The translations under genes were made by a program, and so were the position numbers. From positions 1 to 40,051 of the forward strand of contig JAYTLZ010000014.1 of assembly GCA_043728995.1 (NCBI GenBank): a stretch of DNA of 40,051 nt, in the 5' to 3' direction. The notes beneath the pieces were generated by a model. That model was not told where the DNA came from. It searched no databases and saw nothing but the letters and a program-made list of their open reading frames with translations. The first letter of the stretch is position 1. Every line of letters starts with the position of its first letter. The DNA comes from Minisyncoccota bacterium. Lineage in GTDB: Bacteria > Patescibacteriota > Minisyncoccia > Phycocordibacterales > JAACPR01. This document shows, piece after piece, positions 7,865 to 37,855 of the stretch.

Positions 7865-10800
7865 GCCGTTTGCCCACCTCCATGTCCATAGCCACTATAG
7901 CCTTTTGACGGCTCTGCCCAAGATCAAAGACCTCATTGCAGCTGCCAAAGCAGACGGCCAGACTGCCCTCGCCCTGACTGATAACGGAAACATGTACGGG
8001 ACCATCGACTTCTACGAGAAATGCCGCGAGAACGAGATTAAGCCGATCCTCGGAATCGACGCGTATGTTGCCCTCCGAACACGCAAGGACAAGGAGCGAA
8101 TCGACGCCCGCCGGTCACGTCTGATTCTTTTGGTAAAAAATAACCAAGGATACAAGAACCTCATCGAGCTCGTGACCGATTCCAACATGGAAGGTTTTTA
8201 CTACAAGCCGCGAATCGACAAGGAAACGATTGAGAAATTCCACCACGGAATGATCGCCATCTCCCCATCGTTCAATAGCGAGATCGTGAACGCGCTCGCG
8301 ATGAGTAACGAGACGAAGGCGCTCGAGATTCTCGATTTTTACAAGAAGACATTCGGTGATGACTTCTATATGGAACTCACACACCATCCGGAGATCGACG
8401 GACACGATGCGCGAATGAGCCTTCTGCGTGACTTTGCCAAAAAGACGAACACGAAGTTGGTCGCCGCGTCCGACGTCTACTACATCAAGCCAGACGACCG
8501 CGATGCGCGCAGGACGCTCATGTCGGTACAGAACTCATTTGGAGGAGATGCCCGCTCTGACGACGACGAGGACTTTTCTTTTATTACGCAAAAGCAGGCC
8601 AACGCGTATTTCAAGGAGGACCAGGACGCGCTCGCCAACATCCAGGAGATTATCGACAAGTGCAACATCGAGTTGGAGCTCGACAACTGGGTGTTCCCCG
8701 CTATCGATCTCGACGGACGAGTAGCCAAGGACGTGCTCAAGGAAAAAGCGTACGCCGGAATCGAGAAGCGCATGCTCGAGCGGACAGATGAACTCATTAC
8801 CCGAGTGGAATACGAACTGGACGTGATCGAGACCAAGGGATACTCGCCGTACTTCCTCGTAGTGTCGGACCTGCTTCGTTTCGCCAAGGAGAATGGAATC
8901 GAGTCCAACACTCGAGGATCCGCTGCCGGATCGATGGTTTCCTATTTGATCGGAATTACGACGATTAACCCGATGGAATACAACCTTCCGTTCGAGCGAT
9001 TCCTCAACCCTGATCGACCATCTCCCCCTGATATCGATATGGACTTCGCTGACAACAGACGCGATGACGTGATCGACTATGCGCGTCGCAAGTACGGCGC
9101 ACACAACGTGGCGCAGATCGGTACGTTCGGAAAGATGCTCGCGAAGGGTTCGGTGCGAGATACCGCCCGAGCCATGGGATTCCCCTACGAGATCGGAGAC
9201 ATGGTTGCCAAGCCGATCCCGATGGGAGCGCAAGGATTCCCCATGACGATCAAGCGCGCATTGGCGGACGTTCCTGAATTCATGGAATTGTACAAGACGA
9301 ATGCCGATGCCAAGACCATTATCGACATGGCCCAGAAGATCGAGGGTTGCGCGCGACACATCGGTGTCCATGCTGCGGGAGTGGTTATTTCCCCTACGTC
9401 AATGACTGACTTCGTTCCTGTCCAGATGGATCCCAAGGGCGAAGGCAAGATCATCACGCAGTACGACATGCATTCGGTTGAGAAGGCCGGACTCCTCAAG
9501 TTCGACTTCCTCGGACTCAAGAATCTCAGCATCATCGCGCAGACAGTCAGGATGGCCGACCGAATTTATGGAGAAAAGATCGACACGGATCTCATCCCGC
9601 TCGACGACACAAGGACGTACGAGATGCTTGCGCGCGGTGAGACCGAAGCGACGTTCCAGCTCAACGGAGACGGCATGACGCGCTTCCTCAAAGAGCTTAA
9701 GCCTTCCAACATTCATGACATCAACGCGATGGTGGCGCTCTACCGACCGGGACCGCTCGCCTTTATTCCGGATTACATCGAACGAAAGCACAATCCCGAG
9801 AAGGTGTCGTACTTTGATCCGAAGCTCAAGCCGTTCCTCGAGCCGACGTACGGAATTCTGATCTATCAGGATGACATTCTTCTGATCGCCGTAAACCTTG
9901 CTGGGTACTCATGGGGAGAGGCCGACAAGTTCCGAAAGGCTGTGGGTAAGAAGATCCCGGAGGAAATGGCAAAGCAGAAGGAGAAGTTCATCAAGGGATG
10001 TATCGAGATCGCGGGATTCACCGAGGACAACACGAACAAGCTGTGGGACATGATCGAGACATTTGCCGCGTATGGATTCAACAAGGCGCATGCCGCTTCG
10101 TACGGACGTATCGCCTACGTCACTTCATACCTCAAGGCCAACTTCCCCGTACTCTACATGGCCTCTGTTCTTACTGCCGACTCCGGTGACGTCGAGAAGA
10201 TCGCGACCATGGTACACGAGTGCGAACGTATGGGTATCGAGGTTCTTCCTCCTGATATCAACGAGTCGTTCGCGGAGTTCGGCGTGGTGCCTGGTGAGCG
10301 TGGCAAGGAGGTTATCCGATTCGGACTGACGACCATCAAGAACTTCGGACAAGGAATTGCGGATGCAATTATTATAGAAAGAAAGGCGAACGGAAAGTTC
10401 AACGACATCGAGGAATTCTTCACGCGCGTGATCGATCGTAATTTAAATAAAAAGTCAGTCGAGGCCTTGATCAAGACTGGAGCGTTCGACAGCATCTTCC
10501 CTGATCGCGCTACCCTGCTGCATAATCTGGAGAATCTTTTGAAATTTAATAAAGAAATCGGCAAGACCGACGAGGGACAGGATTCGCTGTTCGCATTTGC
10601 TGGAATAGAAATGTCTCACCTGCACATTGAGCCAGGTCCAGTAATTTCAAAGACTGAAATGCTCGCATGGGAAAAAGAGCTGCTCGGACTCTATGTTACA
10701 GGCAACCCGCTTGATCAGTTCAAGGATCTGATCACCGCAAGCGGCCACAACATCGCCAGCATCAAGGAGAAGACACGCAACGGCGCCACCGCCGTTGTCG

Positions 10801-13793: not shown

Positions 13794-15023
13794 TTATGCT
13801 TTCGCGAGCTTGTTTGCTTCCTTGAAGTTTGCGATTCGATTCGCTACCTCGGACTTGCCCTTCTTGTTTCGAAGAACCATGGCTCCGGCGGCACTCCAGG
13901 CGAGCAGAACTGCTACGAATGCGATTCCCTTGGCTACATCCTCAGGTCCAGTATATGGAACCTGGTTCAGGTAGACAGATCCGACAGTCGGAGGAACGTA
14001 TGGGATTGTTCCGGTCGTGATGTTCACGTCTCGGTCATCCTCGTCCTCGTCGTCTCGAACTCGCACCGTACACGTATCACGAGCCACTCGTCCCTCGTCG
14101 TCAGTTACCCTGAGATCAATCTCATAGGTTCCCTCTCGATCGAATCGGACAGTAATCTCGTCATCGTCTCCGTCGGCATCTCCGGACCAGTCGTACTCGT
14201 ACGGTCGGTCACCTCCCTCAACTCGTGCCTCGAGCGTTACTCGCTCGTTCCTGTCGACAGTCGTTCGGGCTGGTACGCAGATCGCGTCAAAGTCCTCAGG
14301 CTCGTCATCCTCCTCAACTCGTACCTCACACTCAGCAGAGTCAGTTCGACCCCGTGAGTCAGTCACTCGGACTGTCGCTCGGTAGGTTCCCTCGTCGTCA
14401 AATCGTACAGTGACGATTCGGCTTGATGAGGTGAAGTCTCCTGTCCATCGGTATGTGTATGGAGATCGTCCACCGTCCACCTCGGCCTCGAACGTTACTG
14501 ACTCGCCAACCTCGACCGTTCGGTCGGATGGGATACAGATTACGTTTAGGTCCTGTACTGGTGGCTGTGGTGGCGGATTACAGTTTGTCCGACATGGCTC
14601 TGGCCGCGGATTACAGTTTGATCCACAATTGTTCCCCCCGTCGTCGTAGTAGTAATCATCGTCATAGTAGTACTCATCATCGTAATAATAGTCATCATCA
14701 TAGTAGTACTCCTCATCGTCGTAGTAGTATCCGTCGTCGTATGAGTAGTCATCGTAGCCGTAGCCAGAGTCCCACGAGTAGTCATCGTAGCCGTAGCCAG
14801 AGTCCCAACTGTAGTCATCGTAGCCGTAGCCAGAGTCCCACGAGTAGTCATCGTAGCCGTAGCCAGAGTCCCACGAGTAGTCATCGTAGCCGTAGCCAGA
14901 GTCCCAACTGTAATCGTCGTACCCGTATCCGGAATCTTCCCAATCGGCAGAAGCAAACTGAGGAATTATCACGAATGCAAGAATCGCGAGAACTATACTG
15001 ATTTTTTTACTAAAATTTTTCAT
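13794..15023 (-). CDS. secreted repeat protein: signal peptide, 6x DSGYGYDDYSW repeats, D/Y-rich tract, two PKD-like domains, VPYTG sorting-signal-like C-terminus
   Basis: Signal peptide MKNFSKKISIVLAILAFVIIPQFASA. PKD-like segments carry SPYTYRWTGDF and RPYEYDWSGDADG. The C-terminus reads VPYTG, then a hydrophobic stretch, then RNKKGK. Confidence 0.85.
   Translation of the reverse strand: MKNFSKKISIVLAILAFVIIPQFASADWEDSGYGYDDYSWDSGYGYDDYSWDSGYGYDDYSWDSGYGYDDYSWDSGYGYDDYSWDSGYGYDDYSYDDGYYYDDEEYYYDDDYYYDDEYYYDDDYYYDDGGNNCGSNCNPRPEPCRTNCNPPPQPPVQDLNVICIPSDRTVEVGESVTFEAEVDGGRSPYTYRWTGDFTSSSRIVTVRFDDEGTYRATVRVTDSRGRTDSAECEVRVEEDDEPEDFDAICVPARTTVDRNERVTLEARVEGGDRPYEYDWSGDADGDDDEITVRFDREGTYEIDLRVTDDEGRVARDTCTVRVRDDEDEDDRDVNITTGTIPYVPPTVGSVYLNQVPYTGPEDVAKGIAFVAVLLAWSAAGAMVLRNKKGKSEVANRIANFKEANKLAKA
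13797..13961 (-). other. candidate sortase sorting signal (VPYTG + TM + basic tail)
   Basis: Codons gtt cca tat act gga lie at 13947-13961 (reverse strand). They are followed by PEDVAKG-IAFVAVLLAWSAAGAMVL-RNKKGK and a 19-aa extension. Confidence 0.55.
14739..14936 (-). repeat. six tandem 33-bp in-frame repeats
   Basis: The near-identical unit GTAGTCATCGTAGCCGTAGCCAGAGTCCCA(CGA/ACT) on the plus strand encodes DSGYGYDDYSW six times. A D/Y-only tract follows at 14643-14738. Confidence 0.95.
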
Positions 15024-17799: not shown

Positions 17800-17827
17800 A
17801 TTATACAACACATTTTGTATTTGACAA
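17800..17827 (-). promoter_or_regulatory. promoter of sortase gene, 6 nt from ATG (leaderless candidate)
   Basis: On the minus strand: TTGTCA (plus 17822-17827), 16 nt, TATAAT (plus 17800-17805), then TGCGCA, then ATG. Confidence 0.55.
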
Positions 17828-17900
17828 ATACTGTTTGTGTTTCATTATCAAAATGACTAAATTGACAAAGGCACGTTTTCCTATAACTTGTTCCTTAGAC

Positions 17901-18317
17901 ATGAACAAACCCTACAAACCGTTGGCGCTCGAAATTTTTGGAGCGAGGATGCAGCGTATGATCAATGCAATCCGAGAGGACCCCAAAAAAAGTATCCGTG
18001 ATGCTAATCCGGAAGGAAGATGGGGGCTGTACCCCGCAAACCATAAAAAACTGTTGGCCGAACTGACTTCCGCTGTTCACGAAGGACTGGATGACTGTGC
18101 ATTACACACAACATTCCTGGATCGTTATGCACTGGCAGAAGTCAATCTTCTAACCACTGTGCTTTTAACCGGACATATAGGACCGGATAAGCTACACGGC
18201 GCGTACGAAGACTTTAAATCCTACCCAGGCATGGCCGACTTGTCAGAACGAGACTTTTATTTTTTCGTTTCGCACATATTACTAGACCACATACAAAAAA
18301 TTAGAGAATCCATCTAG
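17901..18317 (+). CDS. hypothetical protein
   Basis: ORF 17784..18317. Candidate starts are ATG 17853 (MTKLTK) or ATG 17901 (MNKPYK). A terminator lies at 18332-18360. Confidence 0.5.
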   Translation: MNKPYKPLALEIFGARMQRMINAIREDPKKSIRDANPEGRWGLYPANHKKLLAELTSAVHEGLDDCALHTTFLDRYALAEVNLLTTVLLTGHIGPDKLHGAYEDFKSYPGMADLSERDFYFFVSHILLDHIQKIRESI

Positions 18318-18504: not shown

Positions 18505-18508
18505 AAGT

Positions 18509-18536
18509 TCCAGGCCTCACGGCCTGGATTTTGTAT
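18509..18536 (+). terminator. intrinsic terminator after tRNA-Tyr
   Basis: TCCAGGCC-tcac-GGCCTGGA followed by TTTTGTATT. Confidence 0.75.
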
Positions 18537-18575
18537 TAGGTTTAGCCCGTTTTTCAAATGTGCTATGATGAACGG

Positions 18576-18785
18576 ATGCTACGGATACCCGTCACATCTA
18601 GTGACATAAAGTCGATAGGTTACGACCCTGATAATCTTATACTTGAGATTGAATTTCTTTCTGGAGGAACGTACAGATACTTCGGCATTCCCCCGCATCT
18701 GCATAAAGAGTTTATGCATGCAGATTCGAAGGGAAAATTCCTACATGCCTTTATCAAGTTTAGCTACCGCTACCAGCGAGTATAA
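18576..18785 (+). CDS. KTSC-domain small protein
   Basis: MLRIPVTSSDIKSIGYDPDNLILEIEFLSGGTYRYFGIPPHLHKEFMHADSKGKFLHAFIK matches my memory of the KTSC domain pattern (S.I..IGYD.....L.V.F..G..Y.Y..VP...........S.G.F). Confidence 0.7.
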   Translation: MLRIPVTSSDIKSIGYDPDNLILEIEFLSGGTYRYFGIPPHLHKEFMHADSKGKFLHAFIKFSYRYQRV

Positions 18786-18798
18786 ATCTAGGCACCGA

Positions 18799-19539
18799 AT
18801 GTTTAATCCCAAGACCAAAAGAATAGAGGAAATTGCGAAGATTAACCCTAACCCCATAGTTCAACTCGAAGGACTCTTTGGACCAGTCACAAGAATGTAT
18901 ATCGACTATGCTAACGTTCGGCCATGGAGCACTAAGCTAGGCTGGCACGTAGACCTCGGAAGGCTCAAGCAATTTTTCGATTCATTCGATACGACAGACG
19001 CAATAACTATCTATAATGGGTATATAGAAGGGGACATTCGTTCCGAACAGGAAATAAAGCAAGCAGAAAAACAGAAATATATAGTGAGGACAAAACCAGT
19101 AAAGAAGATGCGGCTCGCAATCGACGCATCGAGCATACCCAGCGACTCTACCGCTCTCTTGGACCAGTTCGTCAAGCGTTGCTTATTGAGGAAATTTGAG
19201 CTGGGAACTGTAGAATACCTTAACGAACGTTTCAGGGACATGAACAAAAAGGGCGAGTACTTTATCGAGGATCGCAAGTGTAACTTTGATGTTGAAATAG
19301 GAGTAGACATGTTGATGGATCACGAGAAAGAAATTGCTGACACATTCGCTCTCTGGAGCGGAGACAGCGATTTCTTTGATCCACTTGAGAAACTGCTCAA
19401 GGCAGGAAAACGAGTTATTCTCTTCGCGACCACAGGAAAGGTTTCCAGAGAACTATCCCTCCTTAGAAGCCAGGGTCTCATTATTTTCGAGGTTAAGAAG
19501 ATAAGGAACTTTATCTGCTGGAAAAAAGAGGTTCAATAA
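18799..19539 (+). CDS. NYN/LabA-like (PIN-related) domain protein
   Basis: MYIDYANV, NFDVEIGVDM and SGDSDFFDPL motifs are typical of NYN/LabA nucleases. The ATG is at 18799. Confidence 0.75.
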   Translation: MFNPKTKRIEEIAKINPNPIVQLEGLFGPVTRMYIDYANVRPWSTKLGWHVDLGRLKQFFDSFDTTDAITIYNGYIEGDIRSEQEIKQAEKQKYIVRTKPVKKMRLAIDASSIPSDSTALLDQFVKRCLLRKFELGTVEYLNERFRDMNKKGEYFIEDRKCNFDVEIGVDMLMDHEKEIADTFALWSGDSDFFDPLEKLLKAGKRVILFATTGKVSRELSLLRSQGLIIFEVKKIRNFICWKKEVQ

Positions 19540-28897: not shown

Positions 28898-28935
28898 CAA
28901 TTGGCACGACATGTTGCCTTTGTTATACTGAAACT

Positions 28936-29115
28936 ATGAATATCAAGACATTACTCAATAAGATCTTTAAGTCCCGCGCAGAAAAGAGCGACGAGGCTTT
29001 TGACACAATCATCAAGGACGTCTACAAGAAGCACCACAAGGAGATAGAGTCGCTCCGCAAGCACGATCAAGGAGAAAAAATAATCAATGCACCCGATCTG
29101 CGACAAATTGGTTAG
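28936..29115 (+). CDS. small protein, candidate antitoxin partner of the Doc-like toxin
   Basis: 59-aa ORF (MNIKTLLNKIFKSRAEK...) immediately upstream of the Doc-like ORF and overlapping it. The antitoxin role is assigned by position only. Confidence 0.4.
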   Translation: MNIKTLLNKIFKSRAEKSDEAFDTIIKDVYKKHHKEIESLRKHDQGEKIINAPDLRQIG

Positions 29116-29479
29116 GGTTTTTGAGGAAGCGCTGTATCAAACAGGCGAAGTTGCTTTTCCATTACAAGAAATTCACAAGGAACGACTTAACACGATTGTA
29201 AAGACCGTATATGCAAACTATTATGAAGTGGACAGATTCCCCGGCCTCAAGGAAAAGGCGTCGGCTTTCTTTTATTTGATTATAAAAAACCACCCGCTTA
29301 CGGATGGCAACAAAAGACTCTCTGTTATGTGGCTCAGGGTGTTCTGTCGAGATAACGAACTCGAATTCGACATCGAAGACCACATTCCCCTCGACGAGCT
29401 TGCAATCTCAGTTGAGCGGACAACATTGGGGTTAGAAGATGCAATACCGTATATCCAAGGTGCCCTATGGAATCAGTAA
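29087..29479 (+). CDS. doc: Fic/Doc-family toxin (death-on-curing-like)
   Basis: The Fic/Doc motif HPLTDGNKR fits HxFx(D/E)GN(G/K)R with F replaced by L, in a ~130-aa protein. An alternative TTG start lies at 29108. Confidence 0.78.
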   Translation: MHPICDKLVRVFEEALYQTGEVAFPLQEIHKERLNTIVKTVYANYYEVDRFPGLKEKASAFFYLIIKNHPLTDGNKRLSVMWLRVFCRDNELEFDIEDHIPLDELAISVERTTLGLEDAIPYIQGALWNQ

Positions 29480-29480
29480 T

Positions 29481-29507
29481 TTGACAAATTATATACTATT
29501 ATATAAT
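29481..29507 (+). promoter_or_regulatory. sigma70-like promoter
   Basis: TTGACA at 29481-29486, a 15-nt spacer, then TATAAT at 29502-29507. Confidence 0.45.
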
Positions 29508-29579
29508 CATACAAGAGATCGCCTTGTGGCTCAGAGTGCTTTATCACTAGAGCTTTTTGAGCCATAAGGCAATCAAACC

Positions 29580-29960
29580 ATGAGAAAACAATTGTTCATC
29601 GCAGCCACACTCGCCATCGCATACGGCATCCTTTATTTCACATCGCTCCAGTCTGTCCTCAAACGGGATCACCTCAACCGATATCAAAGACTTACGAGTC
29701 AAGACAAGGAGCTGGTAGATCGTTACGAGGCTTCAGTACGGAAGATCCAGCCCGGAGATCTGGTAACGGACGACACCGGTACGACTTACATCGTGGAAAA
29801 CTACCAAAGTACAGGTCGTTGGCGAATGAAGGCCAAGGACGGTACCATAAAGTACCTGAGCGAGGCTTTCGAATCAGCCCACAAAAACCGCACGTGCAGT
29901 TTCACTCATCGCAGTGATCCGCACTATGTGCAGGCCGTTCACACGTTCAAGCTGGAGTAA
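29580..29960 (+). CDS. membrane-anchored hypothetical protein
   Basis: 126 aa with an N-terminal TM segment (LFIAATLAIAYGILYF). A structured leader lies upstream and a terminator downstream. Confidence 0.6.
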   Translation: MRKQLFIAATLAIAYGILYFTSLQSVLKRDHLNRYQRLTSQDKELVDRYEASVRKIQPGDLVTDDTGTTYIVENYQSTGRWRMKAKDGTIKYLSEAFESAHKNRTCSFTHRSDPHYVQAVHTFKLE

Positions 29961-29996
29961 CGCCCCAGCTCACACGATCGCTGACAGTGGTCAGCA

Positions 29997-30027
29997 GCGC
30001 CCCGTATCCACGGGGCGCTTTCTTTTT
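29997..30027 (+). terminator. intrinsic terminator
   Basis: GCGCCCCG-tatcca-CGGGGCGC followed by TTTCTTTTT. Confidence 0.85.
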
Positions 30028-30073
30028 ACGCCCTGGTCAAATAGCCTTTGTTCTGCTACTATATTCCCTACAT

Positions 30074-30333: not shown

Positions 30334-30406
30334 GCGCCTATAGCTCAGTCGGTAGAGCAGTCGCCTCTTAAGCGAACGGTCGTAGGTTCGAATCCTACTA
30401 GGCGCA
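30334..30406 (+). tRNA. tRNA-Lys (CTT), CCA not encoded
   Basis: Acceptor GCGCCTA pairs with TAGGCGC. The anticodon loop is CTCTTAA. The T arm is GTAGG-TTCGAAT-CCTAC. Confidence 0.9.
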
Positions 30407-30511
30407 CCTTGTCGGACAGCAAGTTCGAAATCAATTTTAACCTTATTTAGAGCCGTATAATCGGTTTATTTTGCATGTCTTCTGTAGGGCTAGTCGGACG
30501 GAGTTCGCACC
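30400..30511 (+). repeat. island junction copy 0 (tRNA 3' end + left-arm block)
   Basis: AGGCGCACC, then GTCGGACAGCAAGTTCGAAA, then CCTTATTTAGAGCC (30441-30454), then GTAGGGCTAGTCGGACGGAGTTCGCACC (30484-30511). Confidence 0.8.
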
Positions 30512-30638
30512 TTTGACAGACCTCGGTATTCGTACTCGAATTTACATATTGCCAAGGAAGTGTTAGTTTGGTTCTGAAACAGTCAGAGAAGGCACAGTTG
30601 CCTCCTCCCTCTCAAAAAACAGAAAACAAACAGAAGAC

Positions 30639-31550
30639 ATGACAGCGACTTTTCGACTTAACCCCACGGGTTTCCGAGTTCCCGCCCTTGAGGAAATCAG
30701 TGACGACTTCAAGTCAATGTTCAAGAAACATTACCACTGCATCCCGGAGATGGAGGATACCGACAAGGTGGCATCCCTCCTTCTCTCATCTTCCTGTCTC
30801 GAAGAGACAGGCGGAGGAGGAGAGATTCTGCAACGACTCATCTTCAAGATGCAGGACGAAGAAAAGGATATGTACAGCCAACGGCTTCCTGGTGCTGCCA
30901 GTTGGTGGGCACAGCTCCTTCTCAGACTCGGAACAGAACCCTACGACCTTGGCATCTTCAGCCTCGAGGATCTTGGATTCACGGATCCGAAAATATTCGA
31001 ACGAGCAACCGTCGCAGACCTGGTGGAACGCGGCAGGCAGCTCGGACTGCGGCATGTTCCCTATCCCTCTGTAGCGGCACTCGTACTCGCGAAGCCGAAA
31101 GTTTCCTGGGGATCAGGAGTGGTGATCATGACCGAGCCCGTAAACGTCATCTGTGGCGATCTAGGGTGGCGGAACAGACCTCCGTACCTTAAGTACTGGT
31201 TGATCGAGGGAAGAAGCACCGAGAGCGTGCTTCATTACGCGTATGGAAACCCGACGCGCAAGATAACGGAAATGGAAGACGAAAAAATGGTTTTCGGTTC
31301 CTGTGCCACGGGAGAAATCGACATTCCCTCTCCGGCAAAACTCGGCTTCATGTTCGTCGTCCCACCGGGATTCAGACTGCCGCAGCCGAGGCCTCAGCAG
31401 GTAATCGAGGTGATCGAGTCTCCATCCATCACGCTTCTTGCGGACACGCAGATGACTGAAGAGGTTCAGATATTCGCCCTTCCGTCCTGCAATGATGACA
31501 GCGAGCTGATCAGTACGGCCTCCACAATGCAGGAAGCCGTGCTCGTCTGA
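30639..31550 (+). CDS. hypothetical protein (island module 1)
   Basis: 303-aa ORF starting at an ATG, with its own terminator at 31568-31602. No family recognised. Confidence 0.6.
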   Translation: MTATFRLNPTGFRVPALEEISDDFKSMFKKHYHCIPEMEDTDKVASLLLSSSCLEETGGGGEILQRLIFKMQDEEKDMYSQRLPGAASWWAQLLLRLGTEPYDLGIFSLEDLGFTDPKIFERATVADLVERGRQLGLRHVPYPSVAALVLAKPKVSWGSGVVIMTEPVNVICGDLGWRNRPPYLKYWLIEGRSTESVLHYAYGNPTRKITEMEDEKMVFGSCATGEIDIPSPAKLGFMFVVPPGFRLPQPRPQQVIEVIESPSITLLADTQMTEEVQIFALPSCNDDSELISTASTMQEAVLV

Positions 31551-31567
31551 ATGTTCGGTTTACCAAC

Positions 31568-31602
31568 AAGGCGCAGCGGTACCCCGCTGCGCCTTTTCTT
31601 AT
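31568..31602 (+). terminator. intrinsic terminator
   Basis: AAGGCGCAGCGG-tacc-CCGCTGCGCCTT followed by TTCTTATG. Confidence 0.8.
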
Positions 31603-31712
31603 GCGGCCGTCGACGCGCACATTGGACAGGTCCCGACTAATGTTTTAATATCACGGAAACTGATTCAATCAGACCAGAACACCAAAATACAAACAAGAAA
31701 GGAATCCCGACC

Positions 31713-32309
31713 ATGACCTCAACAAGCTCGAAACTCACGCTTGCAGACTTTGACAGCTCATCAACCATCACGCACCACCTCCTGCCCGACGAACGCCTCT
31801 TCCTGGTAACGCATAGCGAAAACGGAAAAGGGGTATTCTCGGCAGCGACGGAGTCATTGATAGTCCCCTGCGGCACGGAGACGGTCAACATCTCGCCAAT
31901 CGAAACGCTTGTCACCGGATCAAAAGTCCTGTGGCTCGTCACGCAGAAGGACGAGACCGAACGCGTCTACGCATCCGCAGGAAAAAGGTGTGGGAGGATC
32001 GGTCCGCTTATCGAGCTTAAAAAAGGATGGAAATTGGACCGCGCACTTTCCGACGACATCCTTCTTCTCTGGGTAGAGAGTAGCCGTCCGAACCGTCGCT
32101 ATCGGTTAGCCTTTCTGAAATCCGGCTCAAATGTGCTGGATTTCCAGACTAACTGGACGCAAATACATATCGGAAAGATCATCGTACGCCCAAACAGAGA
32201 TTTTATCATTCCGTTTCAGCGAAAGGACGGCGTCTACCCCCGTGGGCACATCATCTTTCTTATCAACAGTGAGTCCGAGACCATTGAAAATTACACCTTT
32301 GGTCAGTGA
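31713..32309 (+). CDS. hypothetical protein (island module 1)
   Basis: 198-aa ORF starting at an ATG, with a terminator at 32331-32367. No family recognised. Confidence 0.6.
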   Translation: MTSTSSKLTLADFDSSSTITHHLLPDERLFLVTHSENGKGVFSAATESLIVPCGTETVNISPIETLVTGSKVLWLVTQKDETERVYASAGKRCGRIGPLIELKKGWKLDRALSDDILLLWVESSRPNRRYRLAFLKSGSNVLDFQTNWTQIHIGKIIVRPNRDFIIPFQRKDGVYPRGHIIFLINSESETIENYTFGQ

Positions 32310-32330
32310 GCACGGACTCGCTAGATACAT

Positions 32331-32367
32331 GGACGCAACGAAAGCAATCGTTGCGTCCTTTTTTCTT
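32331..32367 (+). terminator. intrinsic terminator
   Basis: GGACGCAACGA-aagcaa-TCGTTGCGTCC followed by TTTTTTCTT. Confidence 0.85.
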
Positions 32368-32542
32368 ATGCAGCCTTTCTCCTTTCACCTGTGGATAAGC
32401 CTTTGCCAGCTGTGCGAACTTTGTCCAACAAGGCGCACCTAATATTCGATACGTCGAAATTCCTATTATAGCCTTATTTAGAGCCATGAAATCATGGTAA
32501 GTTTTTGATTTTCCGTAGGGCTAGTCGGACAAAGTTCGAACC
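32366..32542 (+). repeat. island junction copy 1 (complete)
   Basis: In order: CTTATGCAGCCTTTCTCC, TGTGGATAA (32390-32398), GTGCGAACTTTGTCCAACAAGGCGCACC (32412-32439), CCTTATTTAGAGCC (32472-32485), and GTAGGGCTAGTCGGACAAAGTTCGAACC (32515-32542). It contains a perfect 12-bp inverted repeat: CGAACTTTGTCC (32415-32426) and GGACAAAGTTCG (32527-32538). Confidence 0.85.
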
Positions 32543-32586
32543 TAACCGAAATACGCATCGATTCTATAAAATGATATGATGACCGC

Positions 32587-33372
32587 ATGGAGAACCTATG
32601 GGAGAAAGTAGTCCGGCTTCTGGACGAGCTGGAGGCTGACGGAGACCTGGAGAAGGCGAAGGCGTTCTACGAGAGGCACATCAGGGCGCGGGAACACTCC
32701 GAGAAGGACCTCGACATCGCCCTCTTCGAGCTGCGCGAGGCGCTCTTCGTGCATCCCAACTTCTCACCGAGCAGCAGGCATCGAGATCTCAAGACCTCGA
32801 TCGCGATAGTCAGGGACGAGATCGGCCCGACTGTGAGGATCGAGGACTACTTCGAGAGGTTCGACTTCGAGGCGTGCAGGCTCGAGATACTCCCATCCTA
32901 CGACTCGTGGGAAAACAGCCCCGGGCTCGCCGACTACCTCGCGGGAAACACACCCAAGGAACCAGCGTTCGATGAGTGGTGCTCCAGGATGGCGGCCGCG
33001 AAGGCGGAGGGCAGGAAGTACAAGAGGCTCCGGTTCGTGACCTTCCCGCTCATCGACTCCGTTAGGTACGAGATAGACGCGTGCTTCCGCAGATCCGCTA
33101 TGGCCGGCGAGGAGATCAAGTACTTCGCCCATGCGCCCGTCCTGAAGGGCGCGCTCGGCACAAAGGACTTCTGGCTGTTCGACGGCAAGGAGCTGGTCAT
33201 CCTGGATTACAGGCTCAACGGCACCTTCTGCGGAGCGAGGCTCGCCTCCCCCGAGCTTGCCAAGGATATAGCAGCCTGGTGGGAAGGAGTCTTCGAGATC
33301 GCGGGACCGATCCGTGACCTTCCCTTCTGGGGCGACCGGGGCAACCGTACTGCCGAGAAGAGGCGGCGATAA
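32587..33372 (+). CDS. DUF6879-like protein with helical N-terminal extension (GC-rich)
   Basis: The C-terminal half (YKRLRFVTFPLIDSVRYEIDACFRRSAMAGEEIKYF...KDFWLFDGKELVILDY..NGTF) resembles the DUF6879 consensus as I remember it. The extended -10 TGaTATGAT ends 6 nt before the ATG. Confidence 0.55.
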   Translation: MENLWEKVVRLLDELEADGDLEKAKAFYERHIRAREHSEKDLDIALFELREALFVHPNFSPSSRHRDLKTSIAIVRDEIGPTVRIEDYFERFDFEACRLEILPSYDSWENSPGLADYLAGNTPKEPAFDEWCSRMAAAKAEGRKYKRLRFVTFPLIDSVRYEIDACFRRSAMAGEEIKYFAHAPVLKGALGTKDFWLFDGKELVILDYRLNGTFCGARLASPELAKDIAAWWEGVFEIAGPIRDLPFWGDRGNRTAEKRRR

Positions 33373-33438
33373 ATTTAATTACTCCATAAACAACATGACA
33401 GGAATAGCTATCCCATACCAATATGCTAGTATCAGCTT

Positions 33439-34494
33439 ATGAAGTTATACATCGACACGAATATCTACTTATCTTTCATTAGCCCAACAAGCGACATTAA
33501 ATCTCTCATAAGATTAAAAAAATTAATAAACGAGCAAAAGGTTGAGCTCATTCTACCCTCTCAAACGAAACAGGAATTCATCAAAAACTTCAAAAGCAGA
33601 GTTGCTCAAGAAAAAAGCAAGATAGAGAACGCAAAATCATCCATCGAAATCCCAAACCTGCTTAAAGGAGTGAAAAGACCTTCAAAAGAAGAGAAATCAA
33701 TAATTAAGCAGATTGACGATTTAAATAGTGATCTGAAGATTTATCACAAAACAAAATTAAAGGATTTCAAAAATCACATAGACAGCACTGAAAAATTGTT
33801 AGATGAAATATTCACAGCATCCACGTTCTTTGAATATACAGACGACATCGTTCAAAAAGCCTTAATTAGGTATGCAAAAGGACTCCCGCCAAAGAAAAAT
33901 GATTTTAAATTTGGAGACTCTATCATCTGGGAAACCTTAAAGGACAATATTCGAAATGAAGATCTGGTCATTGTAAGCCATGATGGAGACTTTGCAGAGA
34001 ATTCAAATAAACCCCTTAGGATTAACAAGACTCTCGCTGCAGAATGGAAAAAAGAAAGAAAGAGAAAGATAAGCTTACATAAAGTGCTTGGCGAATTCAT
34101 CAATACGCTTGATAAGCAGGATGTTGTTGATTCTGATACCATTGACCGTGAAATCAAACAGGCTAACGCCCTACACAATCAGTATGTTATTGCTGCTAAC
34201 GATCAGCCTGCTTATATCTTAAATAACGGTAGTCTTTCCGTGCCCAACATTGGTGCGGCGACATACAAAATACCAAATGCAAGCAATTTGGTCATAAATC
34301 CAAATTCAAATCTTGCCAATCTTTCCTCTTACAGAATTAACTATCAAGAAAATGATTACAGCGCTTACATCTTAGGCAACAATAAAAAATGCTCTAAATG
34401 TGGCAAAGACTTTTTCCCGGGACTGTTAAGTGTTAGTGACAATCTTTGTGCGGAATGTACGCTTAACAAATATCAACACTGGGATTTTAATTAG
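33439..34494 (+). CDS. PIN-like (DUF4935-like) nuclease-fold protein with C-terminal CxxC..CxxC zinc ribbon (AT-rich)
   Basis: MKLYIDTNIYLSF (first acidic site), GDSIIWETL, VSHDGDF, and C-terminal CSKCGKDF...LCAEC. The extended -10 TGcTAGTAT ends 6 nt before the ATG. Confidence 0.65.
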   Translation: MKLYIDTNIYLSFISPTSDIKSLIRLKKLINEQKVELILPSQTKQEFIKNFKSRVAQEKSKIENAKSSIEIPNLLKGVKRPSKEEKSIIKQIDDLNSDLKIYHKTKLKDFKNHIDSTEKLLDEIFTASTFFEYTDDIVQKALIRYAKGLPPKKNDFKFGDSIIWETLKDNIRNEDLVIVSHDGDFAENSNKPLRINKTLAAEWKKERKRKISLHKVLGEFINTLDKQDVVDSDTIDREIKQANALHNQYVIAANDQPAYILNNGSLSVPNIGAATYKIPNASNLVINPNSNLANLSSYRINYQENDYSAYILGNNKKCSKCGKDFFPGLLSVSDNLCAECTLNKYQHWDFN

Positions 34495-34510
34495 ACCCAC
34501 TGATCCAATC

Positions 34511-34700
34511 TTGCTGTGGACAACTTTCAAAACAGGTTCGAACTTCGTCCAACAAGCTGCACCCAGTAGAACGGCCCTCTGAGGCCCAAAATACCCTTTA
34601 TTTTCAACGTAAATTCATCACGCGAGCCCGACCTCGGACTCTTTTATCGTAAATGGGCCTTTGTTAGAGCGGTGCTAGGTCTAGCAACGAAAATGGGTTT
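34511..34700 (+). repeat. island junction copy 2 (degenerate)
   Basis: TGTGGACAA (34515-34523), then GGTTCGAACTTCGTCCAACAAGCTGCACC (34535-34563), then CCTTTGTTAGAGCG (34658-34671), then GCTAGGTCTAGCAACGAAAA. Confidence 0.6.
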
Positions 34701-34790
34701 TAGTCAAAAAGCGTTACGGCGTATGGAGCACGAAAAATGAAAATGCCCACGGCGCACATGGCGTCGCGGGCACTTGGATGTAGGAACGGC

Positions 34791-35093
34791 TCAGTCCTTC
34801 GGAAAGCGGTCGTCCCGCTCGTAGGTATCGGTCCCGGGAGGGACGAGCTTCCATTTTCCTTTCCGCAGGACGAGCACCCCGTCGAGCTGGAGCAGCTCGA
34901 TGAAGTCCGAGCCGGTGAAGCCCGGGAACATCTGCCTCTCCCCGAAGAGCTTGGCGAACTCCTGCTTCGAAATCCCGTCGCGCAGGCGCGGGAGCATGTC
35001 CCTCATCAGTTCCCCGACTTGGTCCGAAATCCCGGCACAGTAATGGTCGACGAAAGTCGTCTCTTCTCCGTCCTTCTTCTCCGTGGTTGGCAT
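34791..35093 (-). CDS. small hypothetical protein, divergent from the TIR operon (possible wHTH regulator)
   Basis: ORF 34791..35132. The internal ATG at 35093 is preceded by GAAAGGA 8 nt upstream. The C-terminus reads FIELLQLDGVLVLRKGKWKL. Calling this a wHTH is a guess. Confidence 0.45.
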   Translation of the reverse strand: MPTTEKKDGEETTFVDHYCAGISDQVGELMRDMLPRLRDGISKQEFAKLFGERQMFPGFTGSDFIELLQLDGVLVLRKGKWKLVPPGTDTYERDDRFPKD

Positions 35094-35204
35094 GGTCGTA
35101 TTCCTTTCTTGGTTGGATGATTCTGTTCCCATTTAACCACGAAGGGACTCCGATGGGAAATGGCCCCCTTGTACTTCCCCGCCCGCCGCGGTAGTGTCAG
35201 GCGC

Positions 35205-35756
35205 ATGAGTGAAAGAAGAAAGTGGGAGATATCGGACAAGGCGCTGGCGGAATTCCACAGGATCGCTGTGGCCGAGACCGGCGTCGACGCCACCATGGAC
35301 CAGGCGCGCGAAGTCGCGGAGTGGATGCTCTCGCTCGCCGACAACGTCGCGGGGCACAGGCGGTCGGTCCGAGCGATGGAGGAAGGGCTTGCCGGCTTTC
35401 CCGACGGGTACGAGCTGCCGCCGGACTCAGGGTACGACTGCTGGATCTGCGGCGGCGGGCGGCGGGAGTTCCGCGAGGTCTGGTTCGATAGGACAGGCGT
35501 GAAGTGCGGGCCCTGCTACATGACGTTCCGCAAGCGCGCGCTTCCCCTCTCCGTCGCGACCGACCGCGAGTCGTGGTATGACGACTGGGACCTGAAGCGC
35601 AGGCTGGGCATGACCTCGCGCATGATCGCGGTAAAAATCGGGAGCGGCGAGCTGATCGCGCGCACCGTGAAGGGAACAGGGTTCCGTATTTTCATGATCA
35701 AGGAGAACCCGTCGCTTCCCTATCCGAGGCCAGACGTGGTACGATTGCGTCAATGA
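35205..35756 (+). CDS. zinc-ribbon (CxxC..CxxC) plus C-terminal HTH-like protein
   Basis: The protein reads MSERRKWEISDK...CWICGGG...CGPC...WDLKRRLGMTSRMIAVKIGSGELIARTV, which is excisionase/MerR-like by eye. Its stop overlaps the next start (ATGA at 35753-35756). Confidence 0.6.
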   Translation: MSERRKWEISDKALAEFHRIAVAETGVDATMDQAREVAEWMLSLADNVAGHRRSVRAMEEGLAGFPDGYELPPDSGYDCWICGGGRREFREVWFDRTGVKCGPCYMTFRKRALPLSVATDRESWYDDWDLKRRLGMTSRMIAVKIGSGELIARTVKGTGFRIFMIKENPSLPYPRPDVVRLRQ

Positions 35757-36703
35757 GCAGGCCCACGCCCAAGGTTTTCATATCATATTCCCACGACAGC
35801 GAAGCGCATAAAGACTGGGTGCTGACTTTGGCAACGCGTCTGATGAGCAACGGCGTCAATGTCGTCCTTGACCAATGGGACCTTGAGCTCGGCGGGGACC
35901 TGCCACTCTTCATGGAATCTGGCCTGACCTCGGCCGACAGAGTCATCGCGGTGTGCACAGGAGCGTATGTCGAGAAGGCCAACGCAGGCAAAGGTGGCGT
36001 AGGCTACGAAAGGATGATCATTACCCCTAGCCTTATGAGGAACATCAGCGACACGACTATTATTCCCGTGATTCGCAACAGCGAGGACGCCCCTACTCCC
36101 ACGTTCCTTGCCTCAAAGCTCTACATCGACTTTCGAAACGACTCGGACCTCGAAGCCGGTTACGCGCGGCTTATAAGGGAAATCCATGGGGAAGGCGTGA
36201 AGCCGCGTCCCGCTCTCGGGCCAAACCCCTTCGACGACGACGTCAAATGGCGCGAGCCAAGGCTTGAGTTCTCAAGCGAGCGCTACGTCTCGCCTACCCT
36301 TCGCGGCGTCGTGACGTTTGATTACTCAGACAACAACGGGGAGTTCGTGCTCGGATCTGGAAAGATGGCCTTCGAAACGAAGTGGTCCAGCGCAAGCAAC
36401 GACTCCATCCATTCCTACGTCTGGAATGAAAACATCAGCACAATGGCAATTGCATTCGGAGTCGAGAAGATCAGCGACATCCGCGACGCCGGTGTCTTCA
36501 ACACCTCTTCGACGAGCCGGACACCCCGCATCAACGAAATCATCGTCTGGCAGAACTCCGCTGGCTACTATGCGGCAGCACTCATTGTGGCCGTCTCCTG
36601 CCGTTCGCACGGCCGGGAAGGAGACAGTGTAACCTTCTCCTACGTGGTCCAGCCCAACAGAACCGGCGACTTCAGCAATTTTGATGAGGTAGAAACTGTT
36701 TGA
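35753..36703 (+). CDS. TIR/SEFIR-type domain protein with uncharacterised ~165-aa C-terminal domain
   Basis: The N-terminus reads KVFISYSHDSEAHKDWVLTLATRLMSNGVNVVLDQWDLELGGDLPLFMESGLTSADRVIAVCTGAYVEKANAGKGGVGYE. This matches the bacterial TIR-like pattern (FISYSH, D.W.L, FME, VCT..Y, GV.YE). Confidence 0.8.
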   Translation: MSRPTPKVFISYSHDSEAHKDWVLTLATRLMSNGVNVVLDQWDLELGGDLPLFMESGLTSADRVIAVCTGAYVEKANAGKGGVGYERMIITPSLMRNISDTTIIPVIRNSEDAPTPTFLASKLYIDFRNDSDLEAGYARLIREIHGEGVKPRPALGPNPFDDDVKWREPRLEFSSERYVSPTLRGVVTFDYSDNNGEFVLGSGKMAFETKWSSASNDSIHSYVWNENISTMAIAFGVEKISDIRDAGVFNTSSTSRTPRINEIIVWQNSAGYYAAALIVAVSCRSHGREGDSVTFSYVVQPNRTGDFSNFDEVETV

Positions 36704-36715
36704 TAGCCTGAACGA

Positions 36716-36811
36716 GCCTTATTCCTAAGCAGCCTCCCTCCACTCCCCTGTGGATAAGGGTCTGCCAACCGTGCGAACTTCGTCCAACAAGGCGCACCAA
36801 GTCGGACAGCA
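36716..36811 (+). repeat. island junction copy 3 (right end, attR-like)
   Basis: CTAAGCAGCCTCCCTCC, then TGTGGATAA (36749-36757), then GTGCGAACTTCGTCCAACAAGGCGCACC (36771-36798), then AAGTCGGACAGCA. Confidence 0.8.
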
Positions 36812-36853
36812 TATCCACGTCTCATGCATCCTGTTTCGTGTTACCATTTACAT

Positions 36854-37564
36854 ATGAAAATTCTTATGATTCTCACCGGCTTACTCGTTATCGGTATTTT
36901 TTATGCATATCCGTTTTATAGGACGACCAAGATAAGTGCAAAACTAGAAGAGAACACAATTCCTTACGAGCAAAGCCCTGCAGATCCAGACATGACTATC
37001 CTCATCGCTGGTGATAGTACAGGCGTCGGAACAGGTGCAACGGAAACCCAAGATTCTACGGCTGGCAGAATCGGGTCACTGTATCCGCGCGCAACGATCA
37101 CAAATATTTCAGAAAATGGATTAAAGCTTGAAGATTTGGAACAAAAACTGAGCAGCGTATCTGATACATATGACCTCATCGTGCTTCAGATTGGAGCGAA
37201 CGATATCGTACGACTTTCTTCCTTCAAAAATATCGAGCAACGAGTTGAATCTGTACTCACGCTTGCAGAGGGCATTGCGGACAACGTCCTAGTCCTGACA
37301 TCAGGAAACATCGGCTCGTCCCCTACCTTTAGGTGGCCGCTCTCAGCACTGATGGACTATCGGACCCGGAAGGTGCGTGAGATTTTCTTGTCAAAAATTT
37401 CAACGCACCCAAAGATATCATACGTAGACTTATATAAAGAAAGAAAGGATGACGAGTTTTCAAAAGACCCTCAGAAATATTACGCAGCGGACAAATTCCA
37501 CCCAAGCAGCAATGGCTATGCGATCTGGTTTGAGAAGATGAAAAGCGTCCTTGCGAGCAAATAA
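36854..37564 (+). CDS. membrane-anchored SGNH/GDSL-family hydrolase
   Basis: MKILMILTGLLVIGIFYAY is the TM segment. ILIAGDSTGVGTGA is block I (GDS). LQIGANDIV is block III. DKFHPSSNGY is block V (DxxH). Confidence 0.8.
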   Translation: MKILMILTGLLVIGIFYAYPFYRTTKISAKLEENTIPYEQSPADPDMTILIAGDSTGVGTGATETQDSTAGRIGSLYPRATITNISENGLKLEDLEQKLSSVSDTYDLIVLQIGANDIVRLSSFKNIEQRVESVLTLAEGIADNVLVLTSGNIGSSPTFRWPLSALMDYRTRKVREIFLSKISTHPKISYVDLYKERKDDEFSKDPQKYYAADKFHPSSNGYAIWFEKMKSVLASK

Positions 37565-37660: not shown

Positions 37661-37855
37661 ATGAAAATCATCGGTGCAACCTGGATGGCAGTTCTCTGTG
37701 CTGTAAATGTCTATAGCTACTTCGAGAAGGGCAAAGAGACACTTCCCTTGAGCATGGCGGTATTCACTGGACTGATGTTCATCGTATTCCTTGCATTTCC
37801 AACAAGGAGCAGCTGCACATCCTCAACCCCTGAAACTAAAACTGGCGAAAAATAA
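37661..37855 (+). CDS. small two-TM membrane protein
   Basis: MKIIGATWMAVLCAVNVYSYF... An alternative TTG start at 37628 is preceded by GAAAGG. Confidence 0.5.
   Translation: MKIIGATWMAVLCAVNVYSYFEKGKETLPLSMAVFTGLMFIVFLAFPTRSSCTSSTPETKTGEK

Follow-up and report, generated by a model that had tools for sequence, protein, structure and literature searches.

A probable array of recombinase-less cassettes behind tRNA-Lys(CTT) in a Paceibacteria genome, with junctions related to the gene end of a large serine recombinase

How is an island assembled behind a tRNA gene when it carries no recombinase of its own? This question is raised by a stretch of 40,051 nucleotides from a Minisyncoccota bacterium (contig JAYTLZ010000014.1 of assembly GCA_043728995.1; the whole stretch is referred to as the window), in which three gene cassettes of about 2 kb each follow the tRNA-Lys(CTT) gene. 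The initial annotation had described the interval as a mosaic island of tandem modules and had offered three explanations, namely mobilisation in trans, a decayed tandem array or an unrecognised mechanism of assembly. Our comparison with related loci indicates that the island is probably a tandem array of three non-autonomous cassettes of a large serine recombinase (LSR) family, located at the tRNA-Lys(CTT) 3' end of a Paceibacteria genome, with the recombinase module either lost or acting in trans.

The sequence AGGCGCACCTTGTCGGACAGCA (30400-30421), which includes the end of tRNA-Lys, recurs as AGGCGCACCAAGTCGGACAGCA (36790-36811), and gapless extension yields a 29-nt repeat with 86% identity (30393-30421 versus 36783-36811). 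Its core, AGGCGCACC, is found again exactly at 32431-32439 and as the variant AGCTGCACC at 34555-34563, as originally reported. These repeats are clearly beyond chance. With up to three mismatches, the 17-mer GTCCAACAAGGCGCACC occurs seven times in the window, compared with 0.05 occurrences expected from shuffles, and the right-arm motif CTAGTCGGACAAAGTTCGAAC occurs four times (0.00 expected). Longer similarities connect 32360-32439 with 36719-36798 (80 nt, 82.5%, blastn E 5e-17), 34536-34575 with 36771-36810 (40 nt, 82.5%) and 30425-30512 with 32454-32543 (92 nt aligned, 76%, E 6e-10), the last pair being the right arms of J0 and J1. Altogether, four junctions (J0-J3) delimit three modules, each closed by the same junction sequence, which agrees with the proposed tandem organisation. 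The internal junctions consist of a left arm P of about 80-100 nt, the core (O) and a right arm P' of approximately 100 nt. With B for the tRNA side, the layout of the array is J0 B-O-P' / J1 P-O-P' / J2 P-O-P' / J3 P-O-(13 nt). In one respect the repeat differs from its first description: the flanks do not diverge immediately outside it, as similarity to the 3' part of the tRNA continues to the left of the right-hand copy (TCCAACA versus TCCTACT). The repeat had been taken as the attL/attR pair of an integration into a tRNA 3' end. Our data support acquisition of the island and its anchoring at the tRNA-Lys 3' end; a simple duplication of the host target is not supported.

Pfam searches revealed no recombinase among the seven open reading frames (ORFs) of the island, as had been noted before, nor among 23 other ORFs of the window, for which only housekeeping functions were recognised. 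When 120 LSR homologues were compared with the window by tblastn, the matches obtained were solely relics of the C-terminal tail, and these were located at J1, J2 and J3. At J1, residues 583-605 of homologue P0007 matched positions 32437-32369 on the minus strand (70% over 23 aa), at J2 residues 579-598 of P0009 (75%) and at J3 residues 579-605 of P0007 (70%, E 9e-7). An LSR is not encoded in the window but is encoded in the related loci L003/L007, L004, L018 and L026. In L003, which belongs to an array labelled Akkermansia, and in L004, a metagenome contig, the last junction overlaps the 3' end of a gene for a protein of 605-633 aa. As this protein contains Resolvase and Recombinase domains, a Cys4 motif (zinc ribbon) and a coiled coil, it is a large serine recombinase. 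The core of the attachment site (att) is situated about 20-50 codons before the stop codon of the LSR gene, and the site as a whole falls within roughly the last 30 codons. Each of the four junctions J0-J3 is a copy of this family attachment site and shares homology with the LSR gene at its 3' end. The junctions being recognisable as LSR attachment sites and the LSR being present in related arrays, an unrecognised mechanism of assembly is not supported.

An alignment of 11 junctions showed that the P arm is conserved in all of them, including the LSR-bearing junctions L003c, L004c, L018 and L026. The P' arms are of three kinds: genuine LSR coding sequence, type 1 (J0, J1 and L003b) and type 2 (J2, L003a, L004b and L033). 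Types 1 and 2 have fixed end points and are homologous to the LSR codons NPAFEPEKTVDTS..., from which they have diverged. At the DNA level the P arm is preserved even though its reading frame in the LSR tail differs between L003 and L004, suggesting that it is constrained as DNA and not as protein. Individual junctions of the window have close counterparts: J1 is 77% identical over 121 nt to junction L003b; the P arm and core of J2 match the LSR-linked junction of L003 at 94% over 36 nt, with the right side reaching 83% over 104 nt to L003 8969-9072 and 75% to L004 8657-8770; J3 shows 86% identity over 100 nt with L003 14031-14130 and 85% with the LSR-linked junction at 17808-17907. The 13 nt to the right of the J3 core (CCAAGTCGGACAG) are identical to the LSR-side half-site of L003c, and the LSR and an 82-aa ORF of the related arrays are placed exactly where J3 breaks off. 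These 13 nt possibly represent the deletion scar of an LSR module. Since the Akkermansia-labelled array likewise has the right part of the 21-nt repeat (GTCGGACAG) next to the core of its LSR-linked site, the repeat would consist of related recombinase half-sites or possibly of the 13-nt stump of a deleted LSR module.

Arrays of this family are rare in searchable collections. Scanning GTDB genomes with the junction pattern identified a metagenome-assembled genome (MAG) labelled Akkermansia sp. GFS_3381 (L002; contig JAYTLR010000027.1), with two junction copies 3.8 kb apart, and one chance match (L001). The same scan of JGI metagenome contigs gave one real match (L018) and one chance match (L017), that of viral contigs gave 0 matches, and a scan with the type-1 P' arm pattern likewise gave 0 matches. 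An alignment search of GTDB with the LSR recovered the same Akkermansia-labelled MAG only. L003 (ENA) and L004 (a 161-kb JGI contig, Ga0604627_0000056) were reached via homologues of ORF6, a gene of the third module; L003 shares its LSR protein (100%) and junction sequence with the Akkermansia-labelled contig and was treated as the same organism. The junction is present two to three times per locus in L002/L003/L007 and in L004 (L003 8909-9072, 14011-14241 and 17791-18101; L004 ~6387-6502, 8579-8770 and 14025-14331), and in the related arrays only one module contains an LSR.

Comparison of these arrays indicates that the cassettes behave as units of exchange. Over 3.9 kb, L003 and L004 share 91.4% identity in the cassette with ORF6 and the Gabija genes GajB and GajA, compared with 76% for the LSR and the 82-aa ORF, and relative to L004 an extra cassette of L003 is inserted exactly between junctions. 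Contig L033 (3670 nt, Logan) comprises exactly one cassette bounded by junction halves, in the order core and type-2 P' arm, 84-aa ORF, ORF6 homologue, OLD-family ATPase and P arm. Module 3 of the window is related to the L003 cassette in its type-2 P' arm (83%) and in ORF6 (80% DNA, 75% amino acid identity). This similarity ends at the stop codon of ORF6, where a bSEFIR gene replaces Gabija; related cassettes carry Gabija or OLD ATPases at this position. Modules 1 and 2 resemble the Akkermansia-labelled MAG in their junctions only. The cassette ends share 83-87% DNA identity with the arrays of this Verrucomicrobiota-labelled genome, which implies traffic of cassettes across phyla.

The LSR genes of the related loci are accompanied by further genes. 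An ORF of 82 aa (55-70% identity) always lies directly upstream of the LSR (L003 17823-19888; L004 13975-16124; L007, L024, L027, L029 and L030), and its product is a candidate directionality factor. In several loci the 5' side of the LSR shows a backbone of a ~1030-aa TrwB_AAD_bind/DUF8128 ATPase, a 175-aa protein, a protein of 416-798 aa and the 82-aa ORF. This backbone could be the translocation or transfer module of a complete element; none of these proteins had a match in the window. The cargo of L003 and L004 comprises the defence genes Gabija, Shedu SduA_C, PycTM and AAA_15/OLD. A Druantia DruA gene adjoins an LSR of 61% identity, and L029 contains caspase-helicase and Gabija-like genes.

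Two further observations were made on these loci. Approximately 100 nt upstream of the 82-aa gene, where the similarity between L003 and L004 ends, both loci, in our reading of the sequences, contain a degenerate att-like sequence (GCTGCGAATTGTACCA...GTGTGCCAAGTGGACGCAG; L003 19890-20000, L004 16130-16215), which may be the far end of the LSR module. The other concerns L006, a 1059-nt ENA contig from sample BUSI22-1, whose positions 1-771 are 100% identical to window positions 35077-35847 (ORF6 and the bSEFIR start), while the remainder encodes, in the opposite orientation, a fragment of a glycosidase like those of glycoside hydrolase family 3 (GH3); the join contains no att site. L006 is probably a chimeric short contig and was set aside as evidence of mobility; it places cassette DNA in the same sample set as the Akkermansia-labelled MAG.

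The attachment-site core of the family is GTCCAACAAGG-YGCA-CCWWGTCGGAC with inverted half-sites. As is typical of LSR attachment sites, J0 and J3 possess inverted 11-nt half-sites (GTCCAACAAGG / ATCCTACTAGG - CGCA - CCTTGTCGGAC / CCAAGTCGGAC), in which CGCA follows the left half-site GTCCAACAAGG and precedes a right one that reads GTCCGACAAGG or GTCCGACTTGG in reverse complement. More distant LSRs of the family (L027, L030 and L024) have a palindrome at the corresponding position near the gene's 3' end, e.g. AACACTCTGTGCAGAGAGTGT in L027. The 3' part of the T-arm and acceptor stem of tRNA-Lys (30384-30408, AGGTTCGAATCCTACTAGGCGCACC) is a candidate for the host-side, attB-type left half-site. 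Exact identity between the repeats and the tRNA is limited to 9 nt, beyond which a 5-nt indel is needed to align them: in the MAFFT alignment the tRNA sequence AGGTTCGAA-----TCCTACTAGG is aligned to the P arm sequence AGGTTCGAACTTCGTCCAACAAGG with a gap of exactly 5 nt (strings also given as AGGTTCGAA-----TCCTACTAGGCGCACC and AGGTTCGAACTTCGTCCAACAAGGTGCACC). In serine integrases, attB half-sites have the outer motif, that of the zinc-ribbon domain (ZD), 5 bp nearer to the crossover than attP half-sites do (PMC3783163). The gap corresponds to this published shift, so that the tRNA looks like the host-type (B) and the P arm like the element-type half-site; this applies to the left half-sites, and the right half-sites give no clear pattern. 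We read the right half of J0 (CCTTGTCGGACAGCAAGTTCGAA) as similar to a P half-site in inverted orientation whose outer motif is shifted outwards by 2 nt. The attB site was reconstructed as the tRNA-Lys 3' end plus CGCACCAAGTCGGACAGCATATCC.

Other genomes of the candidate phyla radiation (CPR), namely Giovannonibacteria, Pacebacteria and Minisyncoccia, encode more distant LSRs of this family, which share 36-39% identity with the L003 enzyme. The LSR gene of a Pacebacteria MAG (L019) converges with tRNA-Asn, whose 3' end it overlaps. The same was found for a second LSR in Giovannonibacteria contigs (L021-L023), with a 36-nt copy of the tRNA 3' end approximately 19 kb away. This arrangement is the geometry of J0, in which the tRNA is followed by LSR-derived sequence of the opposite strand.

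The host itself belongs to the Paceibacteria (CPR). IF2 encoded in the window is 71-76% identical to that of the nearest genomes, MAGs of Candidatus Paceibacterota/Paceibacteria, and the cluster of IF2, RbfA, tRNA-Cys, tRNA-Leu, tRNA-Leu and tRNA-Lys is conserved in these relatives (IF2-anchored loci of five Paceibacteria-like MAGs). In the same loci none of the island ORFs or right-flank genes was found near tRNA-Lys, and the downstream DNA was unrelated. The absence of the island ORFs at this position in relatives supports acquisition. In the comparison with relatives that the initial annotation had suggested, the tRNA cluster was present, and neither an empty site nor the GDSL gene downstream of it was found. 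The GDSL/SGNH hydrolase gene on the right flank was provisionally taken as host DNA.

The coordinates of all features are listed in Table 1. The modules contain two to three ORFs each and terminators of their own; a single gene is in reverse orientation. The mosaic composition described initially was reproduced by windowed analysis: G+C values range from 36 to 59% in the modules (module 1, 52%; DUF6879 segment, 59%; PIN segment, 36%; module 3, 58%) compared with 44-53% in 2-kb windows of the host. The same is true for the annotation of conflict-type cargo, since DUF6879, PIN_12 and TIR_2/SEFIR domains (Pfam), bSEFIR (PADLOC) and ORFans were all recovered. The bSEFIR protein matched the PADLOC profile PDLC03957 over residues 1-273 (E 9.3e-78) and is a single protein with an N-terminal SEFIR/TIR domain; bSEFIR is a recognised defence gene, and this protein is predicted to act against phages. 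Its start codon overlaps the ORF6 stop codon by 4 nt. PADLOC found no defence family for the PIN/DUF6879 pair or for the two ORFans of module 1. Overall, the cargo appears to be largely of the conflict type.

Table 1. Coordinates of the island, its junctions and its flanking genes in the window
Feature	Position	Strand	Evidence and remarks
tRNA-Lys(CTT)	30334-30408	+	ARAGORN; Rfam tRNA 73.6 bits; last of the tRNA cluster
J0 (attL-like)	30384-30512	+	tRNA half-site, core AGGCGCACC 30400-30408, right half-site CCTTGTCGGACAGCAAGTTCGAA, type-1 P' arm ending CTAGTCGGACGGAGTTCGCACCT
ORF1, module 1 cargo, 303 aa	30639-31550	+	no family match (Pfam, PADLOC)
ORF2, module 1 cargo, 198 aa	31713-32309	+	no family match (Pfam, PADLOC)
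Terminator-like hairpin after ORF2	32323-32366		inverted repeat
J1 (attP-like)	32360-32543	+	P arm 32360-32430, core 32431-32439, type-1 P' arm 32440-32543
DUF6879 protein, module 2 cargo, 261 aa	32587-33372	+	Pfam PF21806, E 3.6e-30; 59% G+C
PIN_12 domain protein, module 2 cargo, 351 aa	33439-34494	+	Pfam PF16289, E 2.5e-20; 36% G+C
J2 (attP-like)	34508-34636	+	short P arm, core AGCTGCACC 34555-34563, type-2 P' arm
ORF5, module 3, 113 aa	34791-35132	-	no family match; not conserved in related cassettes
ORF6, module 3 backbone gene, 198 aa	35160-35756	+	conserved in related cassettes bearing different cargo
bSEFIR (TIR/SEFIR) protein, module 3 cargo, 316 aa	35753-36703	+	PADLOC; Pfam TIR_2, SEFIR
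J3 (attR-like or truncated attP-like)	36710-36811	+	P arm, core 36790-36798, 13 nt CCAAGTCGGACAG, then unrelated host DNA
GDSL/SGNH hydrolase, right flank	36824-37564	+	Pfam Lipase_GDSL_2; 46% G+C; tetranucleotide content host-like

ORF6 is the backbone gene shared with other cassettes. Homologues with 60-75% identity are present in L003, L004, L033 and L034, and the family comprises 148 representatives at E <= 1e-3 in a library of 1.8 billion proteins. In the AlphaFold2 model (pLDDT, the predicted local distance difference test, of 70), a helical hairpin is combined with a four-Cys zinc ribbon and, at the C-terminus, a winged helix-turn-helix of the excisionase/MerR type whose wing is a beta-hairpin. 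The zinc-ribbon cysteines C94, C97, C116 and C119 are invariant among 36 members, five of which gave Pfam matches to HTH_17, DUF1233 (putative excisionase) or MerR. A Foldseek search of the PDB with this model returned nothing below E 0.8, the best weak matches being winged-helix proteins including mycobacteriophage Xis. ORF6 as a hidden recombinase is ruled out by the zinc ribbon and winged-helix model together with the HTH_17/DUF1233/MerR matches. With low confidence, the model suggests a DNA-binding accessory or regulatory backbone protein of the excisionase type, possibly similar to a recombination directionality factor (RDF); phiRv1 provides a precedent for an Xis-type RDF serving an LSR. 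Homology of the ORF6 N-terminus to the LSR-linked 82-aa protein was rejected as too weak (hhalign probability 31%, E 5e-4). Searching GTDB with the ORF6 alignment added one locus (Uhrbacteria, prophage-like), which had neither an LSR nor an array.

Two observations concern the core sequence in the window. Further att-core matches at 14 of 17 positions, TACCAACAAGGCGCAGC and TTCCAACAAGGAGCAGC, are located at 31561-31577 and 37797-37813 and are 83% identical to each other over 23 nt. A terminator-like hairpin located between ORF1 and ORF2 contains the former; the sequence after this match, TTTTCTTATGCGGCC, is similar to the beginning of a P arm. The latter lies within a 75-aa ORF past the GDSL gene. 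By chance, only 0.05 such matches are expected. Both may be degenerate relics of junctions. If so, module 1 would consist of two units and the island might extend to about 37.8 kb. Moreover, the core AGGCGCACC of J0, J1 and J3 has a C at the site corresponding to tRNA position 70 (30403), the partner of G3 in the acceptor stem of tRNA-Lys, whereas J2 and every junction in other genomes have a T (GGTGCACC or GCTGCACC). A T at tRNA position 70 would result in a G3:U70 pair, which is an alanine identity element. The C at 30403 may have been selected in the host or copied from the tRNA by recombination.

From these data the following scenario can be proposed. An LSR element would have integrated at the tRNA by recombination of attP with attB. 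Circular cassettes without a recombinase, each with a single attP-like site of about 190 nt, would subsequently have been inserted at existing junctions by the same enzyme. Each insertion would regenerate a P-O-P' junction and, next to the LSR, would provide the LSR with a new tail. The accumulation of cassettes would be analogous to that of staphylococcal cassette chromosome (SCC) elements at rlmH. The LSR module would later have been deleted, or the array might have arrived without it. Because no LSR accompanies the array, present-day movement would need an LSR supplied in trans.

Several points weigh against this scenario. Neither an LSR nor the 82-aa ORF nor any other backbone gene is located within the window. 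An empty-site allele is not demonstrable, as the nearest genomes, with their 71-76% IF2 identity, are non-syntenic 3' of tRNA-Lys, and no empty site, circular junction or alternative array turned up in the sequences compared. The right half-sites are weakly symmetric and the crossover dinucleotide cannot be placed; the right boundary may be either a true attB half-site or a deletion scar. The CPR LSRs that reside at tRNAs share just 36-39% identity with the LSR whose relics occur in the window. The arrays of L003 and L004 were not seen to begin at a tRNA, none being present in their 20-kb loci, and no tRNA was found within the L031 locus either. Finally, canonical serine integrases recombine attP with attB only, and insertion at attL- or attP-like junctions would therefore need a relaxed specificity like that of Ccr, which is assumed for this family by analogy.

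Among the alternatives, a dead relic deserves most attention. Three once-autonomous LSR elements might have integrated serially and each lost its recombinase in situ, so that the modules were never mobile without a recombinase and are now fixed. Such a history would be consistent with the lack of an LSR in the window, with P' arms that resemble decayed LSR 3' coding sequence, with the degenerate right half-sites of J1 and J2 near the core and with the divergence of the J1 and J3 P arms to 82.5% identity. However, identical truncations of the P' arm, down to their end points, recur across genomes and phyla, which is not expected from independent deletions in situ, and the recombinase-less Gabija cassette is better conserved between two arrays (91%) than the LSRs (76%). 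We therefore regard serial decay as unlikely. Of the explanations offered initially, mobilisation in trans and a decayed tandem array are both compatible with the locus, and the comparative data favour cassettes that spread as putative recombinase-less units. Chance repeats are contradicted by the repeat statistics, and a chimeric assembly of a CPR contig with Verrucomicrobiota-like DNA is hardly credible either. It is true that the G+C content of module 3 (58%) equals that of the Akkermansia-labelled loci and that the 1-kb contig L006 joins ORF6 to an unrelated GH3-like sequence. But the same arrangement was recovered in three contigs of more than 20 kb, which speaks against a chimera, both ends of the island are connected to CPR-like DNA via structured att sites, and modules 1 and 2 resemble the Akkermansia-labelled MAG at their junctions only.

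Other types of recombinase were also considered. Since tRNA 3' ends are classic targets of tyrosine integrases, the island might be a tRNA-anchored element comparable to cis-mobilizable elements (CIMEs), or its modules might depend on Xer in the manner of integrative mobile elements exploiting Xer (IMEX) or pdif modules and use the inverted 11-bp arms, which surround a short centre; in L004, moreover, a Phage_integrase gene lies just past the LSR module. A tyrosine recombinase is nevertheless very improbable here. The junctions share homology with an LSR gene end and occur together with an LSR in L003/L007, L004, L018 and L026, no Phage_integrase domain was detected in the window or beside the L003/L007 array, and a 5-nt indel distinguishes the tRNA copy from the element arm, whereas attP sites of tyrosine integrases typically hold an exact duplicate of the tRNA 3' end. 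The idea of an integron-like array lacking its integrase (CALIN, cluster of attC sites lacking an integron integrase), with junctions acting as attC sites folded into single-stranded hairpins, is suggested by J1, which forms an imperfect palindrome of about 130 nt with outer AAC/GTT triplets and folds better than shuffles (z -4.0, -3.4), as well as by the defence or toxin cargo of the cassettes. It is largely refuted. The long hairpin is not conserved: shuffled sequences fold at least as well as J0, J2 and the LSR-linked junction, and in L003b the hairpin is a different, local one; the arms of J1 pair without bulges (attC hairpins, R''-L''...L'-R', have extrahelical bases); IntI was not found in the window or in relatives; the modules hold two to three ORFs and their own terminators, with one gene reversed; and the sites are homologous to an LSR gene.

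By analogy, the closest known system of the proposed LSR-family array would be the staphylococcal SCC/SCCmec region. In staphylococci, the LSRs CcrAB or CcrC excise and circularise SCCmec together with adjacent tandem, defence-rich cassettes that lack a recombinase and are bounded by att sites (PMC11470126). As there, tandem cassettes occupy one conserved site and are each bounded by repeated att sequences, some cassettes have no recombinase, the enzyme is of the LSR type and the cargo is rich in anti-phage defence. The differences are that the target is the tRNA-Lys 3' end and not rlmH (orfX), that the hosts are CPR/Paceibacteria and a Verrucomicrobiota-labelled MAG and not Firmicutes, that att is positioned inside the 3' coding end of the recombinase gene itself with conserved arms of about 100 nt, that the cassettes are small (2-5 kb), that the array lacks any recombinase and that its mobility is read from sequence alone. 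This comparison refers to layout and content. The phage serine integrases of A118/LI, Bxb1, phiC31 and SPbeta (PMC3783163) share inverted half-sites, a short core, an outer motif 5 bp closer on the host side and a recombinase with Resolvase, Recombinase, Cys4 zinc-ribbon and coiled-coil domains. Their targets are usually protein-coding genes; the elements described here are cassettes and not phages. The canonical enzymes recombine attL with attR only together with an RDF and form no arrays with attP-like internal junctions.

With integrons and CALINs the array has in common small recombinase-less cassettes, structured sites of about 130-190 nt, defence or toxin cargo and, in relatives, a single recombinase at the array end. 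In contrast to the tyrosine recombinase IntI the enzyme is a serine recombinase, it is convergent on the array and contains the site within its own gene, the sites lack a conserved single-stranded DNA hairpin and are hence not attC, and the cassettes carry several genes with their own terminators. CIMEs and tRNA islands of the tycheposon type depend on tyrosine recombinases and have exact partial-tRNA repeats. They resemble the array in their tRNA-anchored tandem accretion and in recombinase-less, att-flanked units that can be mobilised by a neighbour, and differ in that att is derived here from the end of an LSR gene and deviates from the tRNA by a 5-nt indel.

The array may extend the SCC principle, i.e. 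tandem recombinase-less cassettes served by one LSR, beyond staphylococci and enterococci in a variant with att in the recombinase gene and a tRNA as target; the principle as such has been established in Firmicutes, and mobility in the present case is putative. Tentatively, one may go further and imagine an undescribed form of gene capture that is integron-like but driven by a serine recombinase: an LSR with the site in its own 3' end would gather small circular defence cassettes into arrays beside tRNAs, using sites of about 190 nt derived from the LSR gene end, and the cassettes would circulate between Verrucomicrobiota-like bacteria and CPR, including genomes without an LSR. We consider this broader view possible but doubtful. 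CPR/Patescibacteria have tiny genomes with few recognised mobile elements or defence systems, and the array would represent a defined route to anti-phage genes. In addition, compact and well-delimited pairs of LSR and att are of practical interest as tools for genome integration.

Minor observations in the window concern other tRNA genes. An insert of 1.2 kb (28899-30073) with a small ORF, a Fic/Doc-family protein (29087-29479) and a 126-aa ORF separates tRNA-Cys from tRNA-Leu(TAG), and no att-like repeat of the tRNA-Cys 3' end was found at this insert. In relatives the spacing between these two tRNA genes varies from 45 nt (L015) through 110-240 nt (L008, L009) to 3.5 kb (L010), and the tRNA cluster seems to be a general insertion hotspot. 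At 18505-19539, where no repeat of the tRNA-Tyr 3' end was found, tRNA-Tyr is followed by a terminator-like hairpin and a gene for a 298-aa NYN-domain protein; the G+C content of this stretch (43-45%) is below that of its surroundings, and it may be another small insertion.

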